A stretch of DNA of 63,990 nt, filler included, from Basidiobolus ranarum (lineage: Eukaryota), in assembly GCA_040143965.1 (NCBI GenBank). It is 5 parts of 5 records of this genome, joined end to end, with 100 filler letters (N's around TTAATTAATTAA, not from the genome) between each part and the next. Parts side by side here need not be neighbours in the genome. Positions count along the whole stretch, not along the records: positions 12,878 to 25,640 come from JASJQH010000522.1; 4 more parts are not named here. One strand, given 5' to 3'. The stretch's first letter is position 1, and the number at the start of each line of letters is the position of its first letter. Made by a program: the position numbers and the translations under genes. The notes below the pieces were generated by a model. The model ran no database searches and was not told where the DNA came from. It saw nothing but the letters and a program-made list of their open reading frames with translations. Shown in pieces: positions 12,778 to 62,294 of the stretch.

Positions 12778-12877
12778 NNNNNNNNNNNNNNNNNNNNNNN
12801 NNNNNNNNNNNNNNNNNNNNNTTAATTAATTAANNNNNNNNNNNNNNNNNNNNNNNNNNNNNNNNNNNNNNNNNNNN
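12778..12877. other. Artificial contig linker
   Basis: N44-TTAATTAATTAA-N44, with stops in all six frames. Confidence 0.98.
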
Positions 12878-13500
12878 GTTCTGGAATATGGAGTACATCT
12901 ACTCCCACTCAACCAAAGAGACTACTCTAAGCTTGATAGATTCATCAGCTACTTCCTCAGGCTGCTGATGCCTGACTTGCCTGAGACTTCCTTTGATCAT
13001 GCTCTAAATGGAACATTTGGATTCTTTGCATATCATATCATAGTAGTGCTACAGAGGGCTACATTTTTACTCCAACTAAAGGACTGCAGAAATGTACTGG
13101 TCAAGAAGTGGCTAGCCATACCATCTTCAAATTCACTATCATGCTGGAAACTAATACAAGATGACCCTCTTGTTTTTGAACTAGCTTTATAACTGCATCA
13201 AACAAAGCAGCCCAAAATTGTTGGTATAGACTTCCAGCTGGATCTTTGGAAGCAACACATTGCCTCCATGACACCTTTTTTGATCCCCATTATTCCAGGT
13301 TTTTGTACTATTGTCCATTTGGTTTATACAAAATATCTTCCTTCCTGCTTACCACCTTTGCCCCTTAACACTGTATTTACATCCTCAGTACTGGAATATA
13401 TTGGTCAACAAGTTAAGTATGGATATGATCTAGTTTTGTCACAATATCTTATAAGATTGATATCAAGATTGTGATGTTGTTTAGATTAGTATATTAGCTA
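12878..13500 (+). mobile_element. Degenerate 3' part of a non-LTR (LINE-like) retrotransposon ORF
   Basis: Frame from 12878 reads VLEYGVHLLPLNQRDYSKLDRFISYFLRLL, resembling the LEYG...L..LE.....LR segment after LINE RT cores. It has an internal stop and no CpG over ~980 bp. Confidence 0.55.
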
Positions 13501-14799
13501 AATAAAGTCCACACCACCTGGTGCTTTTCATCACCCAAAGGTGACTGTCTTTACCCTACCCTTGAAGAACTATACCCTCTGTCTCCCCCCCCCTAATTAT
13601 CTTGCCAATTCCTAAACCTAGCTCTCCAGCTATATTTAGGTTTGTAGATACAATTCAAATTCCCAAAAAGAAATCTAAGAGCCTAACCCTAACCCACCCA
13701 GTCAAGATTCAACCTACTGAATTATTGCTCCCCTGGCATGTAGCACCAGTTAACATCATCCAGGGTTCTCTGCCAGGACCAGTGTTATTTGTCAATTGCT
13801 GATTGTCTTTTATGAGTTAAACTATGCATCCTCACAGATTATACTGGATAATTAATGCTTTACGTTTTGTTTTGTTTAGAAGAAAATGTATACTACACAA
13901 GGTTTACACTACTGGGCACTTTTCATCCTCCTTAGCGTTAGGACTAAACAAAGAACCATAATCTTGCTTTATGGTGCAAAATGTGAAACTAATATGTTAG
14001 GGTTGGTAATTGCTTAGAACTACTTGTGTACTAAGTCGAGCAAGTTTTATCAATTTCTATTGTTATGTAAACACAAGAGTTGCATGATTGCCAAAATGTA
14101 TGGTTCAGCCAGTGATGGAATTTGCAACCGCAGGCAATGATATAATAGATTGTTGGCCTATATAAGTAACTATGTAGAAGTATTCAGGTGTGTGTACAGG
14201 AATATACCAGCGTATACAAAAACATGGAAACTTTTGTACGTTGTAACCGTTCCAAAAATGTATACAAGATTCACTTCCCATGATAAACATTGATAGATGC
14301 GGCAGTAAACGATGATCAAATATATTTCTACATATTTGCCAAGAAATTTTCAACCTTACGCCAAGTGTTCACTAAATGCAATTCACCAAATGGATTAACA
14401 AGATTTTACATGACATATGGGAAAGGATCTTCATGGAGTTTCCATAATCCGATGATTCTGATATTCGTAATACTATAAATCCGGATTTATTTCGGTATCT
14501 AATTCCAACTCTACATGTATTGAATGGCACATTGAAGCATTCATGTGGTAAATTCGCTAATGACAACAATGGCATTTCAGTCTCTCTTTCCCTCAATACA
14601 CTTCATCCAAATACAGATCAATTACTCGTGGGAATACTATTGCATGCCATAATCTACCGATGACAGAGCAAGTATGAGATACACTGGTCTTCTGAAATGG
14701 AATTTGTTCCTAAGAGCTGGAATGAAGGTGCTCAAACTCACTAATCTAACAACTAAGATAAATTGAATAAAATGCATGTCGAGTATTATTGGTCTAAAG

Positions 14800-14990
14800 G
14801 AGGCTCAGTCATTAAGTCTAGAGCGGGGGATTAAGTAGATTTATTCCTTACATGATGCCGGGAGTTCAATCCCGGGCTCGTGTGAGGGTTCGTGTGAATG
14901 TTGATCCCAAAACCAAGCTCAAATGGGTAAGTAAGGAAGGTACAGTTGCCAGATGAAAACAGAGTTGCACTCTATTGAGTAACTAACACA
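14800..14990 (+). mobile_element. Possible tRNA-derived SINE head / degenerate Pol III element
   Basis: B-box-like GGGAGTTCAATCCC forming a T-arm stem-loop (~14860-14873), preceded by a weak A-box-like GGCTCAGT. No complete cloverleaf. Confidence 0.3.
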
Positions 14991-15565
14991 AAACTTGAAT
15001 TTCTTTCACATGATAAACCACGTCAAAATAGAGTTGTATTTTTCAATGGAAGATCTCAAGTCCGAATACCCAAGCCCACCTCCGTGATTTCAGATATCTT
15101 CAGAAAGCGTGAATGAGAATAGCTCTATCGTTTACTCAAGAAGTCCTATCTATAATAAACTCCGAATCTTTCACACACTTGTAAATAGAACAACAGAATA
15201 TATACATTATGAGAAATCCCAGATACACCTTGAAATGAATGAAAACAATGAACGACGAACGTGCCCAATTGATTTGGATATTTGTGGAATTTCTACATCG
15301 TTAATGAGTCAAAGAAACTATCAAAGCCAAGAATACGAAATTGTAGAATTACTCAATAAATTCTACAACGAAGGAGGTAATTTCAGGTTTTTTTGGGCTG
15401 ATAACATCTACTTTAAATTATCGTCTTACCACACAGTAATGTCATATCACATGACCGAGGGCCAAGAAAAGTTAGGATAAAAGGCCATCTGCGCGCGTAC
15501 TATTTTCTTCGAGATACTTGAAATTCACATCAAGCTAACACGCTAAAGGGAAAGACGGAGTCATA

Positions 15566-17545
15566 ATGAAAGAAATGATTTACTACACTAGCTTTGCAGC
15601 TTTACTGCTATCTACATCCTTGATCATCTCTTGCACAGCCTCGAAAGGCCCAGAAATGTCAGCAGAAAAAGTCAGCTTAGGAGGGCCACGCGATGCCAAA
15701 GAAGTTGAAGCATTTGCCGACACCATATTCACAAGTACAATGAAGAAATTCAACGTTATCGGCTCTAACTTTGTAGTTGTCCGAGATGGGAATGTAATAT
15801 TAAGCAAAGGTTATGGCTATGCAGATAAGGAGAGGCAAATACCCGTGGACAAAAACACGGTTTTTCAAATTGGCTCGGTGACAAAATCGTTTACTGCTCT
15901 AGCCGTTATGCAACTTGTTGATCGAGGTAAAATAAATCTACATCGTGATATACAAAAATACCTTGGTGGGCTAAAGGTGCCGAATAAAACAGGGAAGCCT
16001 CTAACAATGTATGACTTACTGACGTATACGAGTGGTGTGGACTCTCCAGATATCGTATCAGAGTTTTCCCCTGACTACATAGACAAATATATTCCACTTA
16101 AAGAATTCCTTATCACCCATATGCCAACTGTGATAAGGCCCCCCGGAGAAGCCTATACGTACGATAACTTTGGGTTTATGTTAGCCGGGTACGCAATACA
16201 AAAAGTCAGTGGGATTCCATACTCGCAATATATGGAAAAATATATATTCAAGCCTCTTGGTATGAATGTAACGAATGTTAAGTTTACACCAGAGTTACTT
16301 GCTAACTTGGCTGCGCACTATGGACCGAACGGAGAACTCCTAGATACAGTAGGATTGGCGCCGTCCGAGTGTCCTCAAGGAGGTATGCTTTCGACAGGTG
16401 AAGACATGGCAAAGTACTTGATCATGCATCTAAACAAAGGAGAGTACGGTAGCAAAAGAATCGTAAGCCAAAAAAGTATCCGTCAAATGCATACGTATCA
16501 GATCTTTGTTGATCCTACAATACCCATTACAACCGTAGGGTTTGAAGGTTATTTCAAGGAGTTGATGAACGATGAGCATGTAATTTTGAAAGGAGGTAAT
16601 CTTCCGGGTCATTCATCTCTGGTGGCTATCTTGCCAGAGAAAAATACGGCACTTTACATGTCTTACAACAGTGATTGTATGATGAGCGTGGATATTTACG
16701 AAGCCTTTATGAATCACTATTATCCCAAAGCTAACAAGACCCTGCCATCGGTCTATATGCCTCTAAATGAGCAACTAGCACAGGATTATCTGGGTATATA
16801 CCAAAATACTCGGATGCACGCGTTGAGAACTTTGATCTCATATCAGAACGGAACACTGCTGATGGAGACGGAGGCAACAGGCAAGCAGATACTCCAGATG
16901 AAACATCCTCTATTGTTTGAAGATGAATTAGGTAGAAAAGTAGCCTTCAAGCGTGATTCTTCTGGGAGTATCGCATATATGTACAATACGAATCCTAAGG
17001 GGCTGGATTTGGTTGCGTATGCGCAAAAGTTTAACATGAAAGCAGCGTTTTCCGATATACCTAGTGATAGTAAATACAAGACGTATATTGATCATCTAAA
17101 CGCACTAGATATTATGAAAGGCAAATCAGAGAACCTCTTTGATCCTAATGGAACTATGACACAGGGAGAGTTTGCGGAAGCGCTTTTACGGGCTCATGGA
17201 TGGGATGATGTTACTTATGCAGCCAAAAAAAATAGGAAATTGATGTTGGTAGGAGTCTCCGATTATCAGCCAACTACTCCGATCACCAGAAAAATGGCAG
17301 CTGTTATGATTCAAAACCTCAAAAATCCCGCGACTGAATCACAGATTAGATTGTCTGGTCAAACAGATACTTGGGCAGCAGAGGCCATCGCTGCGCTTGT
17401 GTTTCAGGGCATTGTGGATCCAGATACAAAGACAAGCTCCGATCATACTGTGGATTTCCGCCCAGAAGAGAATTTAAGTCGCCAAGAAGCTAGTGCGTTA
17501 CTTGATATAGGTTTCGGTTGCTATACATTACCAAATATGCCTTAA
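15566..17545 (+). CDS. Intronless serine hydrolase of the class C beta-lactamase/CubicO (peptidase S12) family with C-terminal S-layer homology (SLH) domains; bacterial-type
   Basis: Signal peptide with lipobox-like IISC; F-x-IGSVTK (SxxK); LLTYTSG; PGEAYTYDN (YxN); KGGNLPG; SLH-type FSDIP...Y..YI..L....IMKG....FDPNGTMTQGEFA and WAAEAIAAL...GIV...FRPEENLSRQEASALL. Confidence 0.93.
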   Translation: MKEMIYYTSFAALLLSTSLIISCTASKGPEMSAEKVSLGGPRDAKEVEAFADTIFTSTMKKFNVIGSNFVVVRDGNVILSKGYGYADKERQIPVDKNTVFQIGSVTKSFTALAVMQLVDRGKINLHRDIQKYLGGLKVPNKTGKPLTMYDLLTYTSGVDSPDIVSEFSPDYIDKYIPLKEFLITHMPTVIRPPGEAYTYDNFGFMLAGYAIQKVSGIPYSQYMEKYIFKPLGMNVTNVKFTPELLANLAAHYGPNGELLDTVGLAPSECPQGGMLSTGEDMAKYLIMHLNKGEYGSKRIVSQKSIRQMHTYQIFVDPTIPITTVGFEGYFKELMNDEHVILKGGNLPGHSSLVAILPEKNTALYMSYNSDCMMSVDIYEAFMNHYYPKANKTLPSVYMPLNEQLAQDYLGIYQNTRMHALRTLISYQNGTLLMETEATGKQILQMKHPLLFEDELGRKVAFKRDSSGSIAYMYNTNPKGLDLVAYAQKFNMKAAFSDIPSDSKYKTYIDHLNALDIMKGKSENLFDPNGTMTQGEFAEALLRAHGWDDVTYAAKKNRKLMLVGVSDYQPTTPITRKMAAVMIQNLKNPATESQIRLSGQTDTWAAEAIAALVFQGIVDPDTKTSSDHTVDFRPEENLSRQEASALLDIGFGCYTLPNMP

Positions 17546-19477
17546 TTTTGCTATGGAACTAAGGTTATTACAAATATCATGTATATTTGATCTGTTTATA
17601 TGGCACCCCTTGATTTCTCGATTCTTATTTATTCTCTCACCTTTTTTAATAACGACAAATTCAAAGATGGGAGAAAAGTACACCAATAGTATCATTAAAT
17701 ATATATTTATTTATTACCCACACCAGCATATTTAATTAAACATCTGCGGATCTTCACTCCAATCCAGTTACACTTGGGTTCTCGAAATAATGAAGTGGTG
17801 TAAACAACTTCTTTTAGCTGGCTTAAAACACGGTATTTTTCTTGCTTTTCTATAATCTGTAAATTATAAAGGAATATAACGAGATACGTGTGCTTATACC
17901 AATATGTTACAAAAGCAAGACTAAGTTACATCAACCTCCAAATCGTAACCTCTAAAAAGGGAGATGTCTTGGCATCCAGTAACATAACCTGCTCATCACC
18001 TCCAACTTCAAGTCTTCAAAATCGCCATCTGAATATTCTTTATAAAATAGACAATGTCTTTTTATGACTTCTAAGCCCTTAGACATTGCCTGCTGATTAA
18101 AAGACCGTGAATATAACTTCATGCTTCTTGTTCAGACGGTCATACAGCTTCTAATTCACAATCAGTGATTTTATCTGGGTCAAGTGAATAGCTATGTTCT
18201 AAACAAGGGTAGCAAATCTATTGTAATCCACATAGCAGGATTTCGTTTCTTTGTTAAAGATCTTTAGGAGTATTTCCATACCCCGGAAGAGTAAAATAAT
18301 GTGTTATATATAACCGATCTCTTTGAAAGGTTAGCAATGTGTATCTTTGCCATAGCTCAGTATTATTAGTGACTACCTTATACTACCAAATGAAATCAGT
18401 GAGCGATAGATTGGATAATTTTTGAAATTCGATCTTCCCAATAAGGGAAGCAGTTATCAAACCTTAATATTCCATAAATGATTTCCCGTCGTATCACTTG
18501 AAAACCACAAAGAATCTAACAATTAGTGCCCTTGTGAGTTTTTGAACTCAACTTGAAGTATAAATAGCGCCTACATGAAAGTGTATGTATACCATTATAT
18601 CGGCAGTATTCAAGCACATCATGGTTGCTTCCTCCTCACTCTTTGCAGTGCTCTAAGGCGAAAATCTGGTGGAGCCTGTGATGTTTTCTCGCCAGTTACA
18701 GCCTACCCCAATTTATTCCTTAATCGTGAGCGTATAAAGTCATATGTTGCCAAAGAGATTGCTAGATCTGAAAATAACTTGAGAATCAAAAATATTGACT
18801 TGATCCCCACAGAGTAATTAAGGACTAGCCTCAATTAAACTACATCGCCTCTGTTAGTGCCAATAACACAGGCACATATGTGAGTATTAGATGACCAGAG
18901 TACTCCGACACTAATCAGGGTGATTGTCATATTTATGTCCAATTTCGTCAAGTGGTACAAAAGTGCCCTAGCTATTTTATCTGGATCAAGTTTCAATAAT
19001 AAATGTATCTATTGCTCAGTTATTCCACGACCTGGCAAAGCAAAAATATCTCAGGAACATCAACTTAAATGTTGCTAAAAGACTTGCTAATGACAATGCA
19101 ATGATTCACCCATGTAAACAATTGCAAAGAAACCATAGAATCTATATTAAACACTATTTTATTGTAGTTGTATTGGTAATAATAGAGTGATCTCTATGTA
19201 TGAGTGTATATAAATATATCTGGTTATTTGGCACCATTCCCATTAGGTAAAATGTTGAAGTGTAGCACAGCATCGTGCCGCTCCAGTAGACTTTGCTCTG
19301 GTTGGGTACAAATGTAGTCAATTACAGCTTGGCAGCATATGAACATAGTAATTTTTAAAGTATATTGAGGAGCCTGTCGGAAGTGGTTTGGTGAACTAGA
19401 GAAAGCGGTGGTTTTTGCTTATTGATATATTGAGTTCAAAGTTGACATTGATAGTTTTGTCCAGATGAAGACAAACT

Positions 19478-19695
19478 AACATGTAGAATGTGTTAAGGAA
19501 GGTCCCGGGAACATGTGTCCCAAGTTTGGGGCTTCTAGCACAAGTTTGAATAAATCTATATCTGAAAACTTGTAAGTTGGTGTCAATGTTCCAAGTAAAT
19601 TCCACTTGACAATAATGGGTGATATCTTAGTTTAATATAGAATAACTAAACACTAAGCTATATATGACTATAAAGGCACTTAGCAATGCTAATTT
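19478..19695. repeat. Dispersed repeat fragment (LTR/TE debris), homologous to 25340-25525
   Basis: Shared blocks: tatatctga.aactt...gttggtgtcaat.ttc.aagtaaattcc.cttga...ctaagctat...gcaatgctaatt and tagaatgtgttaa..aaggtc. Confidence 0.7.
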
Positions 19696-21059
19696 CGACT
19701 GCAATTCCACTCGCGCTCCAAGAAAAATGAGATATTTACCTTATTGTATTATTACTCCTTTCACTGCAAGGATCCGGTGGAAATAGTTTGCCTGCATTTT
19801 GGCTGCTGTTTAAATGATGCAATATCCCTCACAAAAGCTACTCTTGTGATATCCACCTGAATTTAATTTTCTAATTACTAACTTGCAACAGATTAAGTAT
19901 TCATCCAAATGATGAGCACCTCTACTAGTATTATCTCATTATAAATCTACATGTAAAAATGTTTTTGGTTTGTTTCTAACCCAGCTGGTTTTGAAAGATA
20001 AGCTGATTTAAAAATATGAGCAGTAAATTATTGCTATCATAGCACTTTTTGGTAATTTTATGATATTAATTCTGTAACAGCCTTTGGAGTTGATAGTTCC
20101 TGCTCTAACTACAGTCATTGACAACATTAATAAAAGACTGAAGATAAAGAAACTTCATGATAAACAACAAAAAGCATGTCTTTAATGCACATATAATATC
20201 CCATATATTTAGTTATTTTCTTACCATGGTTGCACTTAGAAATACGATTATTATATATACCATAAAATGAACTGCAAACAATAATCATGAGACCTTCTCC
20301 CTGCTGGCATCTTTGATACATTACCTCAAGTAGCAAAGAATATTATAATTACAGTGGAACGATTATTGTTCGAAATGAAGTAAAGTATGATTGAAAGCTG
20401 AGGAATGGGAAATGTATTAAATATAAGGAGTACTGGGAGCAACAGGCTTGAGTAATATTACGGCAACCTATGTGACGGACACCGATCTTTGTTTGCAAGA
20501 GTATATGATTATGTGTATATTTATTAAAGTTATTGGCTTTTTCAACGCGGGAAATCTATTCTAATTGCCCATAATACTGGGACATGCTTCTATCACCCAA
20601 AATCTTTTCTTTTTCACCAATATTTCCTGTAAATATTTAGCATACTGCTATATGTCGTACCTCTATCACTTTGGCCGGGAATTATGTTACCCAGAGTTAG
20701 CTGTACAGTCTATAGTCAATTTACTTTTATCTTCGGTGTTTCATTCACTTCGACTTTGTAAGCTATTTATACCTGCAAACTTATCAGAAGATGGGGCCAT
20801 AGTGTAATCAGTACAAGTAAGAACTGCCTCTCAAGCGTACATACTACACGGTAAGTTCCAGTGAGAAGTTTATATTTATTTCAGGATTTGAGTGCTGTGT
20901 TTGCTACGATAAAGTCATATTTTATAAACAAGTTCCTATTCTTTAGTAGTGTTATGATTAGCGGGCGTCTCAAGGCCTAAGAAACCACGAATCCCCTTTG
21001 ATTTACATTTCACTGGTTCATCGCCTAAAAGTAATAAACGTTAATAGCAGTAAATAGAT

Positions 21060-22857
21060 CTAAATAATGTATTTTGACTTACCTATATTCTCCGTGAGCT
21101 TATATGGCTTAATGGATAATGAGCATATATACGTGAGTAACATCATCCCAATAGCATACCACGCCAAAACTCTGATTGTGCCGGACCATGCATCTTTGAT
21201 CCCAGCGATATACTGAGGATTCATCCCAACAAGAGAAGCGCCAGTTTTAGCCGCTGTAAATATGGCATCTGGAGTGTCTGGTGGCAAGTAAAATTTAAGC
21301 TTAGAGGCAAAGGTTGCATTGAATACTGCACCTGTAACGGAGCTGAAGAAAGAACCAAAAATTCCGGCCAAAAAGCCCAGCAACATCACTACTTGAGCAA
21401 TATCTGGAAGGATAGAATTTAGTGGTGAGAACAAGAGTGGTATAGATATGCAGGGTACCTACCTTCGATTGGATGGCAGGATTGAGTGGACAAAACTAAG
21501 GATAAATATTGCATGCCTACACCCAAACCAACAACGCCGGTGGATATAAATACAAGTGCCTTTGAAGTCTCAGTAAATGCGAAAGTTAACGAAATCCCCG
21601 TGATTGTGATCAATGGAGAAACGAGAAGGAACGGCTTGACAAGGCCATATTTGGTTAAAATAAGACCCTCTGTAATTCCAGCAAAAGTAGAGGCTACTAC
21701 GTATGGAGTTCCTATGTAACCGTACTCTCTATCAGATACATTATTCACTGCTTTCGCGTAGAGATTAAGGTACAGCATCCAACCAAACACCCCAGCACTT
21801 TGGAAAATATTGGCGGCAATTGCCCAATTCATAGGGGATTTTTTGAATAAACGCAATTGAATGACTGGTCTTTCAAGTTTGACAAGCTTGGTAACGTAAA
21901 CAACGAACGCAGCAAAGAAAAGCACTCCACAGACAAGGCAAGCGATTATAGTCACGCTGTTCCATGGATATTTAGTCCCTCCCCAATTAGCTGACAAAGT
22001 GATTAAAGTAGTGCCAGCAATAATCAGAATGAACCCAATGTAGTCTATTTGACGGACTTTTGCATGCCAGTCAGCAGCAGTCTTCTGTGGTAGCTTCATC
22101 TTCAAGATCAGCGGAAATACAAGAACACTTAGTGAAAGCCATATGTAAAAAACGTGACGCCATTTTCCACGAGTGGTAAAAGTGGCAGCAACTAATGGTG
22201 CTGTTAGTGCAGTGAGAATGTAGATCACATTTTGTACGGAAGACCAGAGACCACGCTTACGAAGTGGAAGAGCGGCTATAGCATCAAAGTCAGTTCATGA
22301 GTCTAAAGGGTACTATATAAAATATAAACTTACTTGATATGACAATAGATCCGGAGATACTAAGCCCTTGTTGACCCAAACTTCGAATGCATGCAGCAGC
22401 AATGAACATATTCCAATTTACGGATAGGCCACTGAGAGCACACCCAAGAATGAAGATAAAGAGTGACATGAGGTAAGTTTGCTTATAGCCAAAGATGTCC
22501 CCACTATTAGCTACTATTGGTGGAGTCACAGCGTGAATGACACTAGTAAAAGAGGACATCAGAGCAAGCCCACTCAAAGCTTGAAACTCTTCAATATAGG
22601 ATCTTTGTAAAGTGCCTTCTGAATACATCATATAACCAGTCATCAAGTCAGCGGAGCACAGTCTACGATGGAACAAAAAGGTGAGTTCTCTGAGAAAGCG
22701 ATTTACTGTTTTGAATGACTACCCACCCAAGATAACCAACAAGAAAGTTCCCAAAACTTTGGTTGGTCTTAACTCCCTCTTGGTTTCTTAACTCGCTATG
22801 AACTACCTCAGCATTGGAAATACTGGCTTTCTTTTCTCCAAGGTTTATTTCGGACAT
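21060..22857 (-). CDS. MFS transporter, 14-TMS DHA2/ARN (siderophore-iron transporter-like), 4 exons
   Basis: PPIVANSGDIFG (motif A region), LPLRKRGLW, GKWRHVFYIW, IDYIGFIL, GGTKYPWNSVTIIACLVCG. GT-AG introns at ~22726-22663, ~22333-22277 and ~21462-21403. Confidence 0.85.
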
Positions 22858-24884
22858 CTTCGACAAACTGAGTAGTGATATTAGTACAGGTGCTGCATAG
22901 ATTTATATAACATTTGAAGTGGTGGTTTATCAGATGATCAGATTGGAGCAAAGTATATCTGATGTTAACCTGTTATTAATTCAAGCTTATTATGACCAAA
23001 TGGGGCAATCACACCTAAAGAATATACCCTTTTCGTAACAAACACTTGAGAAAATACCCCTTTTGCTGTTAAATGATGATTGTAAGATTAAATACAGATT
23101 ATGCAACGTTATGCACTGTTGACCCAACTTTCGGTACTACCCCAACTATAACTATAATGCTTAATATGAAAAGGAATATCCAAGACAAGTACTTTAGAAC
23201 TCGAGCTGTAATGTTGTGTGCTACAACTTCTGATAAATATTCCAAGTATGCTACTGTGTGTTGAGCATCATTTTTTTTCATACTCCCGGACAAAGTCGGG
23301 TTGCATGACGAAAGAGTGTCACTCAAGTACTTTAACAAAAGATTCATGAAGGCTTACAGCATCATTTTCAGTATATCGTGCTCGAAACAGGGTTGATCAT
23401 AATCCATTACTATCAGGTAATATTTATCGCTCTTCTGTTCAACTATTCCTCTTGGACTAGATCTAATGGAAAACATAAAGGCAGTGCCTGATAGCGTCTT
23501 TAGAAACTCTACAATCGACTATATGCAAATCCTACTTGTATAAATGTCTGCAAGTAAGCTTGAGATGAATTATTCCAACGTATCACTATTCTAGCCCGGA
23601 TCTACAAAAAAAGACACCGGGTGTGACGTGATAGTGGCAAGTTCGGTAGTGCCGATTTCATGTAACATATATAACATAATAATTCATTGGTTTCTGATGA
23701 GTGGGGAAGCGTTTTTTTGGCCCCTACCAGCTTTTTGGCCCCTACCTGCGAGGTCATCCAACGATATCCCAACAAAGCTGTTGTTGTTCATGTACTACAC
23801 CAGCGACATGGGGGCTTGCCATGCTAGTACCATAGAGTTTTCTGCTAGCATTAGTACTGCCAATGAATACCGAGTTAGATGGCGCTAATACGAAGACCTG
23901 TTTTCGTGTGCAGAATCAATACCAGTATCTAGGATATAGCTATCTACACTCTCACCAGCTTATGCTGGATAGTTGTAAATAGCAGCTTCATCTAATAATC
24001 TTTAAGAAATCCTTGAGAGATCCTAACCAGGAGGTTCCGATTAAAATTTACATGGAATATTCTTGTTCAGTTTCGATGGATTCGATATCAGAATGACTAC
24101 TCGATTCAGCAACCCAAGTGCTAGCTAACGTCTCGCCATAAACTTTGAAGGAGAATAGATTGAATTTGATATGAATGGCATTTCCCCCTCTACAACCGTG
24201 ATTCCACTGATCTAACTTGGATTTGGCAAAGCGATCCATAAAATCAATCTGGGCAAGCATAATAATCATGTGCACCTTGTGTATTATCAGCGACACTCTT
24301 TAGTTTGATAATATAGTGATTTTCCGGCTTATTACTTTGAGCTTCAATAAGTGGGGTCAACCAAAGAACCAAGAGCAAACTTTCAGAAGTTAACCACGAT
24401 CTGCAAGAAAATACGAAGACGATATAGATCAGGGAAAGAAAGGATCACTTGATCAATTTCCTCGGTAAGTGATCTACATTTAGTGCGCACTCTTTTTGGA
24501 ATCTAGTTCCCAAGATATGGGTCACAATAGGTGTCAATCATAGCTATTCCGTTTTAGCCCGAATTACGATATTAGAATATTAAGGAACCTGTTCAAACCA
24601 CAACTGGAAGTTGGAGAATTTGTGTTGGTTACCTTGGTACAAACACAATGTTGTAGGACCTTCACTGCCGTCCAGATATACAATCAGATTGACTTGAACT
24701 AACCCAACACTCAAATATCCACAACTCAAGTGCTACTTAACCGTAACTACAACAAACACTTAACCACACAATGAGCACTTCATGGCCTCAAGTTGGTGAT
24801 GTATCAGGATGTTACGTGCAAACGTAAGTGAAAAATCATTGGCTTTATGTATATTTCAATTGTAAAATATAATTTATAGCTTAG

Positions 24885-25323
24885 TTGGGTCCATTTTCTA
24901 CTATTCCAGAATCTAGCAGCTAATATAGCATCTGCAAAGGCCTCACTAACTTTGGTAGTACTGGAATCTTCGCTTGTGATGTCACCTTTAAGTTCATTGA
25001 CAGTGGTATCTCTTTTTGTAGGGTATACAAGCTTTACTTATCAATTGCACACCTTCCCCTGTAGCGGCTACGGGTTTTCCATAGCGATGGGCCTCACGGA
25101 CAAATTCAATCAGCTCATCATACTGGAAAGTAGAACCTGATGAAAGAAGAGTGTCTATCGATTTCTTTCCTCCAGGAATATAGACTGCATCATATAGGAT
25201 AGATGATATAGTGGTGATTGTATTGTTCACTGTCATCATTAGATTTTTGATTGTGCCAATATAAGTTCCAACAATATCTGAGTACACACCTTTCCAATTC
25301 AAATCATTGTAAACCACCTCCAC
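24885..25323 (-). pseudogene. Fragment of the large-subunit catalase C-terminal (DJ-1/GATase-like) domain, frameshifted and 5'-truncated
   Basis: YDAVYIPGG...FVREAHRYGKPVAATGEGVQLI, then after a frameshift ...EAFADAILAARFWNSR. Repeat debris lies directly upstream (25325-25640). Confidence 0.7.
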
Positions 25324-25339
25324 TTCTGAGTTAGTAAGT

Positions 25340-25640
25340 TCAAAAATATTTATATATCTGAGAACTTCCAGGTTGGTGTCAATATTCTAAGTAAATTCCT
25401 CTTGAGAATAGTGGGTAATATCTTAGTTCAATATAGGATAGCTAGATGCTAAGCTATTATGACTACATAGGTGGTTAGGCAATGCTAATTACACATAGAA
25501 TGTGTTAAAAAAGGTCTTAGGAGCACAATTTGATATTGAGAACTTGAGTAGCAGTGTAAACCAATTGTCACAATAAGGAACTGGACAAGGACTGGAAACA
25601 ACAACAGGAGGCTAGAAGGCAGGAGAGTACTTGGGTGTAG
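25340..25640. repeat. CpG-free dispersed repeat (TE debris)
   Basis: Homologous to 19478-19695; no CpG from ~25162 to the contig end. Confidence 0.65.
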
Positions 25641-25740
25641 NNNNNNNNNNNNNNNNNNNNNNNNNNNNNNNNNNNNNNNNNNNNTTAATTAATTAANNNN
25701 NNNNNNNNNNNNNNNNNNNNNNNNNNNNNNNNNNNNNNNN
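25641..25740. other. Artificial contig linker
   Basis: N44-TTAATTAATTAA-N44. Confidence 0.98.
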
Positions 25741-38493: not shown

Positions 38494-38593
38494 NNNNNNN
38501 NNNNNNNNNNNNNNNNNNNNNNNNNNNNNNNNNNNNNTTAATTAATTAANNNNNNNNNNNNNNNNNNNNNNNNNNNNNNNNNNNNNNNNNNNN
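38494..38593. other. Artificial contig linker
   Basis: N44-TTAATTAATTAA-N44. Confidence 0.98.
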
Positions 38594-51340: not shown

Positions 51341-51440
51341 NNNNNNNNNNNNNNNNNNNNNNNNNNNNNNNNNNNNNNNNNNNNTTAATTAATTAANNNN
51401 NNNNNNNNNNNNNNNNNNNNNNNNNNNNNNNNNNNNNNNN
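51341..51440. other. Artificial contig linker
   Basis: N44-TTAATTAATTAA-N44. Confidence 0.98.
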
Positions 51441-60950: not shown

Positions 60951-62294
60951 ATGCGTGAAGTTATCTCAGTCCACGTCGGTCAAGCCGGTATCCAAATTGG
61001 TAATGCCTGTTGGGAACTCTACTGCCTTGAACACGGTATCCAACCTGATGGTCAAGTTGCCACCGAAAAGCTCACCACCGATGACTCTTTCTCCACCTTC
61101 TTCTCTGAGACTGGTGCCGGAAAGTACGTTCCTCGTACTGTCTTCGTCGATTTGGAACCTACCGTTATCGATGAAGTCCGTACCGGTACTTACCGTCAAC
61201 TCTTCCACCCTGAACAATTGATCAACGGTAAGGAAGATGCCGCTAACAATTATGCTCGTGGTCACTACACCATTGGTAAGGAGATGGTTGACTCTGTCCT
61301 TGACCGTATCCGCAAGCTTGCCGATAACTGTAACGGACTTCAAGGTTTCCTTGTCTTCCACTCCTTCGGTGGTGGAACCGGTTCCGGTTTCGGTGCTCTT
61401 CTTTTGGAACGTCTCTCCGTTGATTACGGTAAGAAGTCCAAGTTGGAGTTCTCCGTCTACCCCGCTCCCCAAGTCTCTACTGCCGTTGTTGAACCCTACA
61501 ACTCCATCTTGACTACCCATACCACTTTGGAACACACCGATTGTTCTTTCATGGTTGATAACGAAGCCATCTACGATATCTGCAAGCGTAACCTTGACAT
61601 TGAACGTCCTTCCTATGCTAACCTTAATCGTCTCATTGCCCAAGCTGTTTCCTCCATTACCGCTTCTCTTCGTTTCCAAGGTTCTTTGAACGTCGATTTG
61701 AACGAATTCCAAACCAATTTGGTTCCTTATCCTCGTATTCATTTCCCCTTGATTACTTATGCTCCTATCATCTCTGCTGCTAAGGCTTACCATGAGACCC
61801 TCTCCGTTAACGAGATTACCACCGCTTGTTTCGAACCCAACAACCAAATGGTTAAGTGCGATCCTCGTCACGGTAAGTACATGGCCTGTTGTTTGTTGTA
61901 CCGTGGTGATGTCGTTCCTAAGGATGTCAACGCCGCCATCGCTGGTATCAAAACCAAGCGTACCATCCAATTTGTTGACTGGTGCCCTACCGGTTTCAAG
62001 GTTGGTCTCAACAGCCAAGTTCCCGCCGTCGTTCCCGGTGGTGACCTCGCCAAGGTTAACCGTGCCGTGTGCATGTTGAGTAACACCACCTCCATTTCCG
62101 AGGCCTGGGCTCGTCTTGACCATAAGTTCGATCTTATGTACGCCAAGCGTGCCTTCGTTCACTGGTATGTCGGTGAAGGTATGGAAGAAGGTGAATTCTC
62201 TGAGGCTCGTGAAGATCTTGCTGCCCTCGAGAAGGATTACGAAGAAGTTGGTGCTGATTCCATCGAAGATGAGGAAGAAATTGAGGAATATTAA
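60951..62294 (+). CDS. TUB1: Alpha-tubulin (uninterrupted CDS)
   Basis: [21 protein letters not shown]-terminal EEY. Confidence 0.99.

Follow-up and report, generated by a model that had tools for sequence, protein, structure and literature searches.

A bacterial-type serine hydrolase gene with an SLH-like tail, acquired and duplicated in the fungus Basidiobolus ranarum

The genome of the fungus Basidiobolus ranarum (GenBank assembly GCA_040143965.1) encodes an intronless S12 serine hydrolase of 659 amino acids (aa) with an S-layer homology (SLH)-like tail, which is almost certainly a real, conserved and duplicated acquisition from bacteria. The gene, here termed copy A, lies at positions 15566-17545 (plus strand) of the analysed window, a stretch of 63,990 nucleotides (nt) consisting of five separate contigs joined by N44-12 nt-N44 spacers (12778-12877, 25641-25740, 38494-38593 and 51341-51440), so that genes on either side of a spacer are not neighbours. 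At roughly even chances, we favour the reading that the product is a secreted D-stereospecific peptidase that inactivates D-amino-acid peptide antibiotics of neighbouring bacteria. A preliminary description of this DNA had reported the gene as a candidate for horizontal transfer; it does not mention the additional gene copies, the probable remnant of a promoter or the connection to the peptidase BogQ described below.

Gene structure and domains

Copy A comprises the following features:
15566-17545, plus strand: intact, intronless S12 serine hydrolase gene with SLH-like tail, 659 aa (translation, Pfam)
15566-15634, plus strand: hydrophobic N-terminal leader ending in a lipobox-like IISC (Cys23), predicted secretion signal (hydropathy, homologue Cys)
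15719-16672, plus strand: beta-lactamase-fold catalytic domain (Pfam, motifs; dN/dS 0.096 between copies A and B)
15875-15877, 16160-16162 and 16589-16591, plus strand: catalytic codons of S104, Y199 and K342, in addition to K107 (motifs)
16721-17035, plus strand: middle domain, aa 386-490, without Pfam match and conserved in the family (dN/dS 0.12)
17036-17542, plus strand: three SLH-like repeats with the motifs TQGE, TRKM and SRQE (dN/dS 0.38)

Translation of the window agrees with the intact, intronless frame and the SxxK, YxN and KGG motifs of the preliminary description: the frame contains no internal stop and carries S104-V-T-K107, Y199-D-N201 and K342-G-G, and these catalytic residues are invariant in 64/64 aligned non-fungal homologues. 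The Pfam Beta-lactamase domain (PF00144) spans aa 52-369 (E 8e-58; 196.6 bits against a cut-off of 27), which together with the SxxK, YxN and (K/H)xG motifs places the protein among the S12/PF00144 serine hydrolases. SLH repeats are present as described (PF00395, E 5e-14), but only aa 495-537 passes Pfam on its own and the two further repeats are degenerate. The leader retains its hydrophobic core and Cys23, a cysteine shared by 52/64 non-fungal homologues, and this lipobox-type leader is predicted to act as a secretion signal in the fungus.

Bacterial relatives and origin

A protein search yielded 294 proteins with E below 1e-50, of which the best 120 were examined. The best match is a paralogue from B. 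ranarum, followed by a Paenibacillus lipoprotein at 70%; among the other 119, 83 carry an organism name, all of them bacterial (83/83), and 36 carry none. No fungus besides B. ranarum occurs among the organism-named matches of these best 120, so that the relatives are bacterial without a broad fungal distribution, and none occurs among shorter or longer matches, the shorter ones with fungal names being B. ranarum fragments only. The nearest bacterial DNA is 72% identical to copy A, and blastn matches end at the gene limits. The fungal copies cluster in one clade within a Paenibacillus group both in a quick tree (61 rows) and in a careful tree (23 rows, support 98/100).

Approximately unbiased (AU) tests did not reject a tree in which the fungal copies fall outside every close bacterial row (p 0.17 and 0.25), and codon usage and GC content do not separate host from donor, the GC content of the gene fitting both the host and some Paenibacillus orthologues. 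The nesting within Bacillales anticipated in the preliminary description is therefore seen in the clade and its support and not in the AU tests, which leave the donor subgroup unproven; because the outside placement was not rejected, the direction of transfer rests on the all-bacterial family. Horizontal acquisition from Bacillales, as first proposed, is strongly supported. The proposal had named a break or chimeric join at the gene edges, near-identity to a contaminant and a broad distribution in fungi as signs to the contrary, and none of these was found: contigs bridge the edges, the closest bacterial locus is only 72% identical at the nucleotide level, and B. ranarum is the only fungus among the named matches.

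Integration, copies and selection

Copy A is located on contig C522 (window 12878-25640; 12.8 kb, gap-free) of an assembly that is fragmented into 13,754 short contigs, and source names of the paralogues identify the host as Basidiobolus ranarum. The following features anchor it in the fungal genome:
14153-18315, no strand assigned: duplicated segment of gene and fungal flanks, approximately 80-82% identical to contig C7128 and in part to C1256 and C3595 (alignment)
20896-22870, minus strand: fungal major facilitator superfamily (MFS) transporter gene with four short introns, host anchor (Pfam, introns)
12878-13530, plus strand: high-copy repeat at the contig start, probably a fragment of a long interspersed nuclear element (LINE), host anchor (repeat matches)

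The MFS gene (~20900-22870) matches MFS_1/TRI12 in Pfam, and exact GT-AG boundaries were confirmed in the window for three of the four introns, which agrees with the gap-free contig and spliceosomal-intron neighbour of the preliminary description. The flanks of copy A yielded no bacterial neighbour genes, again as described. The reported LINE debris is plausible: the repeat at 12878-13189 has 130 matches in the genome and a longer copy carries FADD, which we take to be a reverse transcriptase motif, but a Pfam search of the FADD-bearing frame gave no match.

A second full-length copy (copy B; 89% aa identity to copy A) is present on C7128, and further copies on C5968, C1256 and C3595 are 87-93% identical and cut by contig ends. 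The Basidiobolus genome thus holds at least three copies of the gene; a fourth is possible, as C5968 and C3595 differ at 3/78 overlapping nt, the overlap lying at contig ends. The likeness between the copies extends into non-coding flanks (82% over 3.7 kb with C7128), and they adjoin different eukaryotic genes, namely the MFS gene with introns, a sugar transporter and VPS13. Three other window genes had no second copy above 72%, which points, in this small sample, to a gene-specific origin of the copies; whole-genome duplication as their source is not shown by these three control genes. The contig of copy B also carries an intronless 388-aa open reading frame (ORF) without Pfam match (L012:2083-3249). 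Comparison of copies A and B gives a dS of 0.33 and a dN/dS of 0.16 overall, with 0.096 in the catalytic domain (p 2e-25 against 1) and 0.38 in the SLH part (p 0.001 against 1), and the gene copies are under purifying selection.

Sequencing runs containing the gene provide additional evidence for integration. An exact contig of run X1, possibly the source sample, covers 13814-15829 and bridges the 5' gene edge at a depth of 8.6, compared with 8-11 in the flanks. Across the runs, both edges of copy A are bridged by contigs. Runs X2-X4, from a second study with another organism label, also contain the gene, X2 as a single 2231-nt contig over 15526-17761 with 111 differences and X3 as a contig extending to 18071. 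All four MFS introns are skipped in contigs of X2-X4 and retained in X1, and for this reason the X2-X4 contigs appear RNA-like. Linkage to host genes, host-like depth and bridged edges, all observed for copy A, are the features expected of a bacteria-to-fungus transfer. Contamination or a chimeric assembly with Paenibacillus DNA might be suspected from an intronless bacterial-type gene in a fragmented assembly and from a GC content that fits host and some Paenibacillus orthologues alike, but the diverged copies with shared non-bacterial flanks, the edges bridged at host-like depth, the recurrence in a second study, the 72% nucleotide identity to the nearest bacterium and the lack of bacterial neighbours largely refute this explanation, which is almost certainly wrong.

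The genome contains three other S12 genes, on C77 (L015), C7166 (L016) and C6894 (L017), which are 27-45% identical to copy A, have hydrophobic C-terminal tails and split frames, and resemble membrane peptidases of the ClbP/TriF type; they possibly represent an older, separate acquisition.

In the available passages of two studies (PMC7466969; PMC10964425), bacterial transfers make up 2-5% of Basidiobolus genes, with Firmicutes as a main donor group; because bacterial genes are this common in Basidiobolus (PMC7466969), a transfer alone would be unsurprising.

Upstream region and bacterial regulator genes

Three features were identified upstream of copy A:
15446-15565, plus strand: 120 nt colinear with a Paenibacillus leader (pairwise alignment to L020)
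15440-15451, no strand assigned: TGTCATATCACA at -126, one mismatch from TGTCATATGACA, likely relic of a regulator binding site (comparison with bacterial upstream regions)
approximately -52 and 15557-15560, plus strand: ATAC and a Shine-Dalgarno-like GGAG, respectively, within the colinear region (alignment to Paenibacillus leader)

The palindrome TGTCATATGACA is found upstream of the bacterial orthologues at 34/48 loci with readable upstream sequence (28/41 after removal of seven loci fetched twice); most of the closest orthologues have it between -121 and -133. Copies A and C carry TGTCATATCACA at -126, and part of the site is lost in copy B. This site is the only match with at most one mismatch in the 64-kb window, where 0.33 would be expected anywhere, and the fungal genome shows no enrichment of this variant (10 matches compared with 18 in the control); it is the position, rather than the occurrence, that makes the site notable. 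The last 120 nt upstream of copy A align to the L020 leader with a z score of 4.1, which is reached by 0/300 shuffles, and the leaders of copies B and C score 2.9 and 3.9. Four host control leaders reach at most 1.0 (60 nt), and more distant bacteria score lower than L020. An nhmmer search with a profile built from 23 bacterial upstream regions missed the fungal leader, and downstream of the stop codon there is no likeness to bacteria beyond one z of 2.3 in 10 comparisons. The upstream palindrome and leader are likely, although not certainly, the remnant of a bacterial promoter, a reading that rests on pairwise scores and on a motif picked after both sets had been viewed. Survival of this operator-like palindrome would indicate that the transfer proceeded via genomic DNA including the promoter.

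The bacterial orthologues are accompanied by a gene for a membrane sensor of the kinase-receiver-LuxR hybrid type at 54/64 loci (49/57 distinct loci) and by a PF13796 sensor gene at 40/64 (36/57 distinct). Linkage to the hybrid is what one would expect of a gene induced by an external molecule. TGTCATATGACA may be the binding site of these adjoining regulators. No remnant of either gene was found in the fungal flanks, and the hybrid matched the fungal genome via receiver domains only; a putative sensor kinase remnant downstream of copy B, a weak tblastn match (E 0.002), was lost in hmmsearch. Besides TGTCATATGACA, a second element, GACGAAATG-N-ATGACA, was observed upstream of the bacterial genes L018-L045. 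Together, the bacterial palindrome elements, the kinase hybrid and the PF13796 sensor look like an undescribed regulon.

Predicted enzymatic function

The catalytic domain is compatible with several S12 activities. Its best NCBIfam score is to AmpH (114 bits against a cut-off of 266), and the closest solved structures in a PDB search include D-peptidases, esterases and amidohydrolases; 9SN1, the DL-peptidase Lip3/Lip7 discussed below, is the third-best match (E 1.5e-27). To our knowledge, fungi lack the target of penicillin. Copy A shares the SxxK, YxN and KxG arrangement with class C enzymes, but it scores only 99.8 bits against the class C beta-lactamase model NF033085, whose cut-off is 415, and has KGG in place of KTG in motif III. 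Furthermore, Lip3 and Lip7 of Paenibacillus sp. SZ31 are DL-peptidases that carry KGG and lack beta-lactamase activity (PMC12903863, available passages). A true beta-lactamase protecting the fungus or its bacterial partners is thus highly improbable, and detoxification of beta-lactams, one of three functions suggested in the preliminary description, is unlikely; cleavage of D-amino-acid peptides is the best fit of the three.

Passages on BogQ, the D-stereospecific resistance peptidase of Brevibacillus laterosporus (original paper Li et al. 2018), describe an enzyme that cuts after D-cationic residues and degrades tridecaptin, bacitracin, ramoplanin and daptomycin (PMC8127968, PMC6146376, PMC9231227), with the catalytic residues Ser106/Tyr200 and, in a model, S107/K110/Y201/K344 (as given in part of PMC12903863). 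A BogQ candidate was sought in 61 genomes of the family of G001. L119:8985-11003 combines Beta-lactamase and SLH domains with S106, Y200DN and K343GG, the residue numbers printed for BogQ, and lies approximately 6 kb past the end of a run of nonribosomal peptide synthetase (NRPS) and polyketide synthase genes, whose NRPS ends in a reductase domain; its orthologue L125:9426-11450 has S107/Y201/K344. Copy A shows the BogQ-type build, i.e., Beta-lactamase and C-terminal SLH domains, YDN and the motif III Lys. In a motif survey of 149 representatives (145 aligned at the motifs), SLH-aligned relatives have the motif III Lys in 29/29 cases and YDN in 28/29, and other relatives have YSN/HxG in at least 79/116; YDN together with the motif III Lys marks the SLH-bearing clade. 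A relative at 42% (P0319, Bacillus gaemokensis) has the S12 domain fused behind an NRPS module with an adenylation-thiolation-(epimerisation-like) end, its epimerisation-domain motifs being those we take to be typical, and could function in peptide release or cyclisation at a D-residue. In genomes of the Brevibacillus family search (G003:C11:32912-39565, G027:C1 and G031:C12), members of the close family occur as tandem triplets, and several of these genomes also carry 2926-aa frames with S12-like domains.

A number of observations weaken the case for a D-stereospecific resistance peptidase. We know of no assayed close orthologue (above 55%), and esterase, amidase and cyclase activities also occur among S12 enzymes. 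L119:8985-11003 and L125:9426-11450 are themselves probable BogQ proteins or orthologues, judged by residue numbers and location; copy A is 36% identical to the former over 654 columns (36-39% to the pair at full length) and belongs to a separate, well-supported subfamily, so that it is not an orthologue of BogQ. NRPS adenylation or carrier signatures were found at 0/57 distinct close-orthologue loci within up to 10 kb, the control L120 being positive, and a lone HHxxxDG match occurs at 2/64 loci, which represent one contig fetched twice. Because of this lack of NRPS signatures, the close orthologues are not cluster-linked self-resistance genes, unlike BogQ as reported. As regards expression, the contigs of X2-X4 look like RNA, but none of the sequencing runs listed as holding the gene is recorded as RNA.

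Two alternatives are less probable. The protein could be a scavenging hydrolase, a secreted D-peptidase, amidase or esterase freeing nutrients from bacterial debris (D-amino-acid peptides, wall fragments, esters) in gut or litter without a role in defence: the active site is the same, the closest structures are of these types and the close orthologues are not linked to NRPS clusters. We consider this unlikely, as the YDN/KGG and SLH clade includes the BogQ-like protein and a dedicated sensor-regulator accompanies the donor gene, although nutrient sensing remains compatible with the latter. Alternatively, the enzyme might tailor or detoxify nonribosomal cyclic peptides of the fungus itself, as a cyclase, maturation peptidase or self-resistance factor. 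Bacterial-type NRPS genes are numerous in Basidiobolus, which produces cyclic peptides, and P0319 is fused to an NRPS, but there is no NRPS-sized ORF on C522 or in the listed part of C7128, the protein has an N-terminal export leader, and the cyclase SurE and the maturation peptidase ClbP carry His rather than Lys in motif III, which makes this option very unlikely.

SLH-like tail

According to the available passages of PMC6081394 (SpaA rules), an SLH binding groove requires Trp13, Gly29 and Arg43 from three repeats. In the tail of copy A, Arg575, Arg639, Trp603 and Gly519 are present, but repeat 1 has Gln for the groove Arg and repeat 3 has Pro for Gly, both in 64/64 homologues, so that the tail was already degenerate before it reached the fungus. 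No more than one groove could be complete, and the donors do not conserve the Gly and the aromatic residue of this groove. Every copy that spans the SLH domain retains it, and these copies contain the only SLH matches in the genome; in an ESM Atlas search, the C-terminal half matched nothing but SLH clusters below 0.8, at most a lead. Within the fungus, evolution is faster in the SLH part than in the catalytic domain (dN/dS 0.38 compared with 0.096; Fisher p 0.0006), whereas bacterial medians are 0.20 and 0.15 (73 non-independent pairs, including those of one apparently frameshifted locus and several with SLH dN/dS of 0.3-0.5). This suggests, but does not prove, relaxed constraint on the fungal tail. 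At aa 576 (window 17291-17293), adjoining the conserved Arg of repeat 2, all fungal copies have Lys and 63/64 non-fungal homologues have Gln.

These data bear on the third suggested function, targeting of bacterial walls, which is weakly supported: the retained domain speaks in its favour, and the binding motifs, incomplete across the donor subfamily, and the faster evolution speak against it. In its strongest form, the secreted enzyme would be docked by its tail on the pyruvylated polymers of Bacillales walls and would act there as an antibacterial weapon by cutting peptidoglycan D-Ala bonds. Retention of the domain in all spanning copies, purifying selection on the SLH part between copies A and B (p 0.001 against 1), the four residues above and AmpH as best, although far below cut-off, NCBIfam score are consistent with this idea; the missing Arg in repeat 1 and Gly in repeat 3, the shortened repeat 2, the single groove that could at best be complete and the faster evolution of the tail render it rather improbable.

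Proposed mechanism and significance

The gene is integrated, duplicated and conserved in the Basidiobolus genome, with an intact Ser-Lys-Tyr-Lys active site. We hypothesize that a Paenibacillus-like donor supplied a single DNA fragment comprising the gene and approximately 135 bp of its promoter, but not the adjacent sensor-regulator genes. The lipoprotein leader would now function as a fungal secretion signal without bacterial-type lipidation, Ser104 would be acylated by a D-residue of a nonribosomal peptide and the acyl-enzyme then hydrolysed, and the SLH-like tail, under relaxed constraint, would persist chiefly for its structural role in the enzyme. In a bolder version, which we regard as quite unlikely, B. 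ranarum took over a resistance peptidase with its promoter, amplified it and secretes it against D-amino-acid lipopeptides of Bacillales and of other bacteria in gut or litter, and what is left of the SLH tail may keep the enzyme attached to the walls of the producers, so that peptides are cut at their source; if true, no D-stereospecific resistance peptidase of a eukaryote and no working SLH domain of a fungus would have preceded it.

If the favoured reading of a secreted, antibiotic-inactivating D-peptidase is right, destruction of bacterial peptide antibiotics has crossed into a eukaryote that lives amid peptide-producing bacteria and is an occasional human pathogen. The gene is a concrete candidate for how Basidiobolus copes with bacterial neighbours, and a natural experiment on the role of an SLH domain once its normal ligand is absent. 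In the literature searched, we found no report of a YDN/KGG and SLH-bearing S12 family in any eukaryote, although supplementary lists of transferred genes may include relatives. The supplement of PMC11291939 contains one transferred beta-lactamase-domain protein, in Gonapodya, without SLH; available passages of PMC12915298 describe a fungus that degrades bacterial lipopeptides by an enzyme they do not name, and those of PMC7928374 mention SLH only for associated Paenibacillus.

Other features of the window

A high-copy short repeat at 19337-19699 and 25334-25493 reaches a depth of approximately 70,000 in run X1, compared with 10, and also occurs on C7128, C1256 and C3595. The regions 23600-24400 and 24850-25333 are covered by RNA-like contigs of X2-X4 yet lack an ORF of 120 aa, possibly representing a decayed gene or signal from a paralogue. 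An intronless tubulin ORF is located at 60951-62294, overlain by a 398-aa antisense frame (60966-62162).

Comparison with known systems

The closest known counterparts are uncharacterised 'serine hydrolase' lipoproteins of Paenibacillus, Brevibacillus and Bacillus (e.g., P0003 of Paenibacillus sp. LMG 31460), which share 53-70% full-length identity, motifs, leader and upstream palindrome with copy A; their genes adjoin sensor-regulator genes, which the flanks of the fungal gene lack. The BogQ-like protein is of the same length class and has the same Beta-lactamase and SLH build and SxxK/YDN/KGG motifs, but it falls into a different subfamily; unlike it, copy A keeps the lipobox Cys, has a second SLH-like repeat that is approximately 17 aa shorter, and resides in a eukaryotic host. 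Lip3/Lip7 (PDB 9SN1) share the S12 fold, the Ser-Lys-Tyr-Lys tetrad and KGG in motif III and, according to the available part of PMC12903863, cleave D-L bonds in lipopeptides. Their likeness to copy A is limited to the catalytic domain, as they have YSN and a beta-rich C-terminal domain in place of SLH, and the different C-terminus and low score rule them out as orthologues. AmpC (class C) and AmpH agree with copy A in fold family and in the order of SxxK, YxN and KxG, but copy A has additional middle and SLH domains and scores far under the curated cut-offs. Among transfers into fungi, those described by Tabima et al. 2020 (PMC7466969) concern B. meristosporus and B. heterosporus rather than B. 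ranarum, and the available passages of the main text do not contain 'lactamase', 'S-layer' or 'Paenibacillus'; the pattern reported there, intronless bacterial genes among fungal genes, is the one found here.

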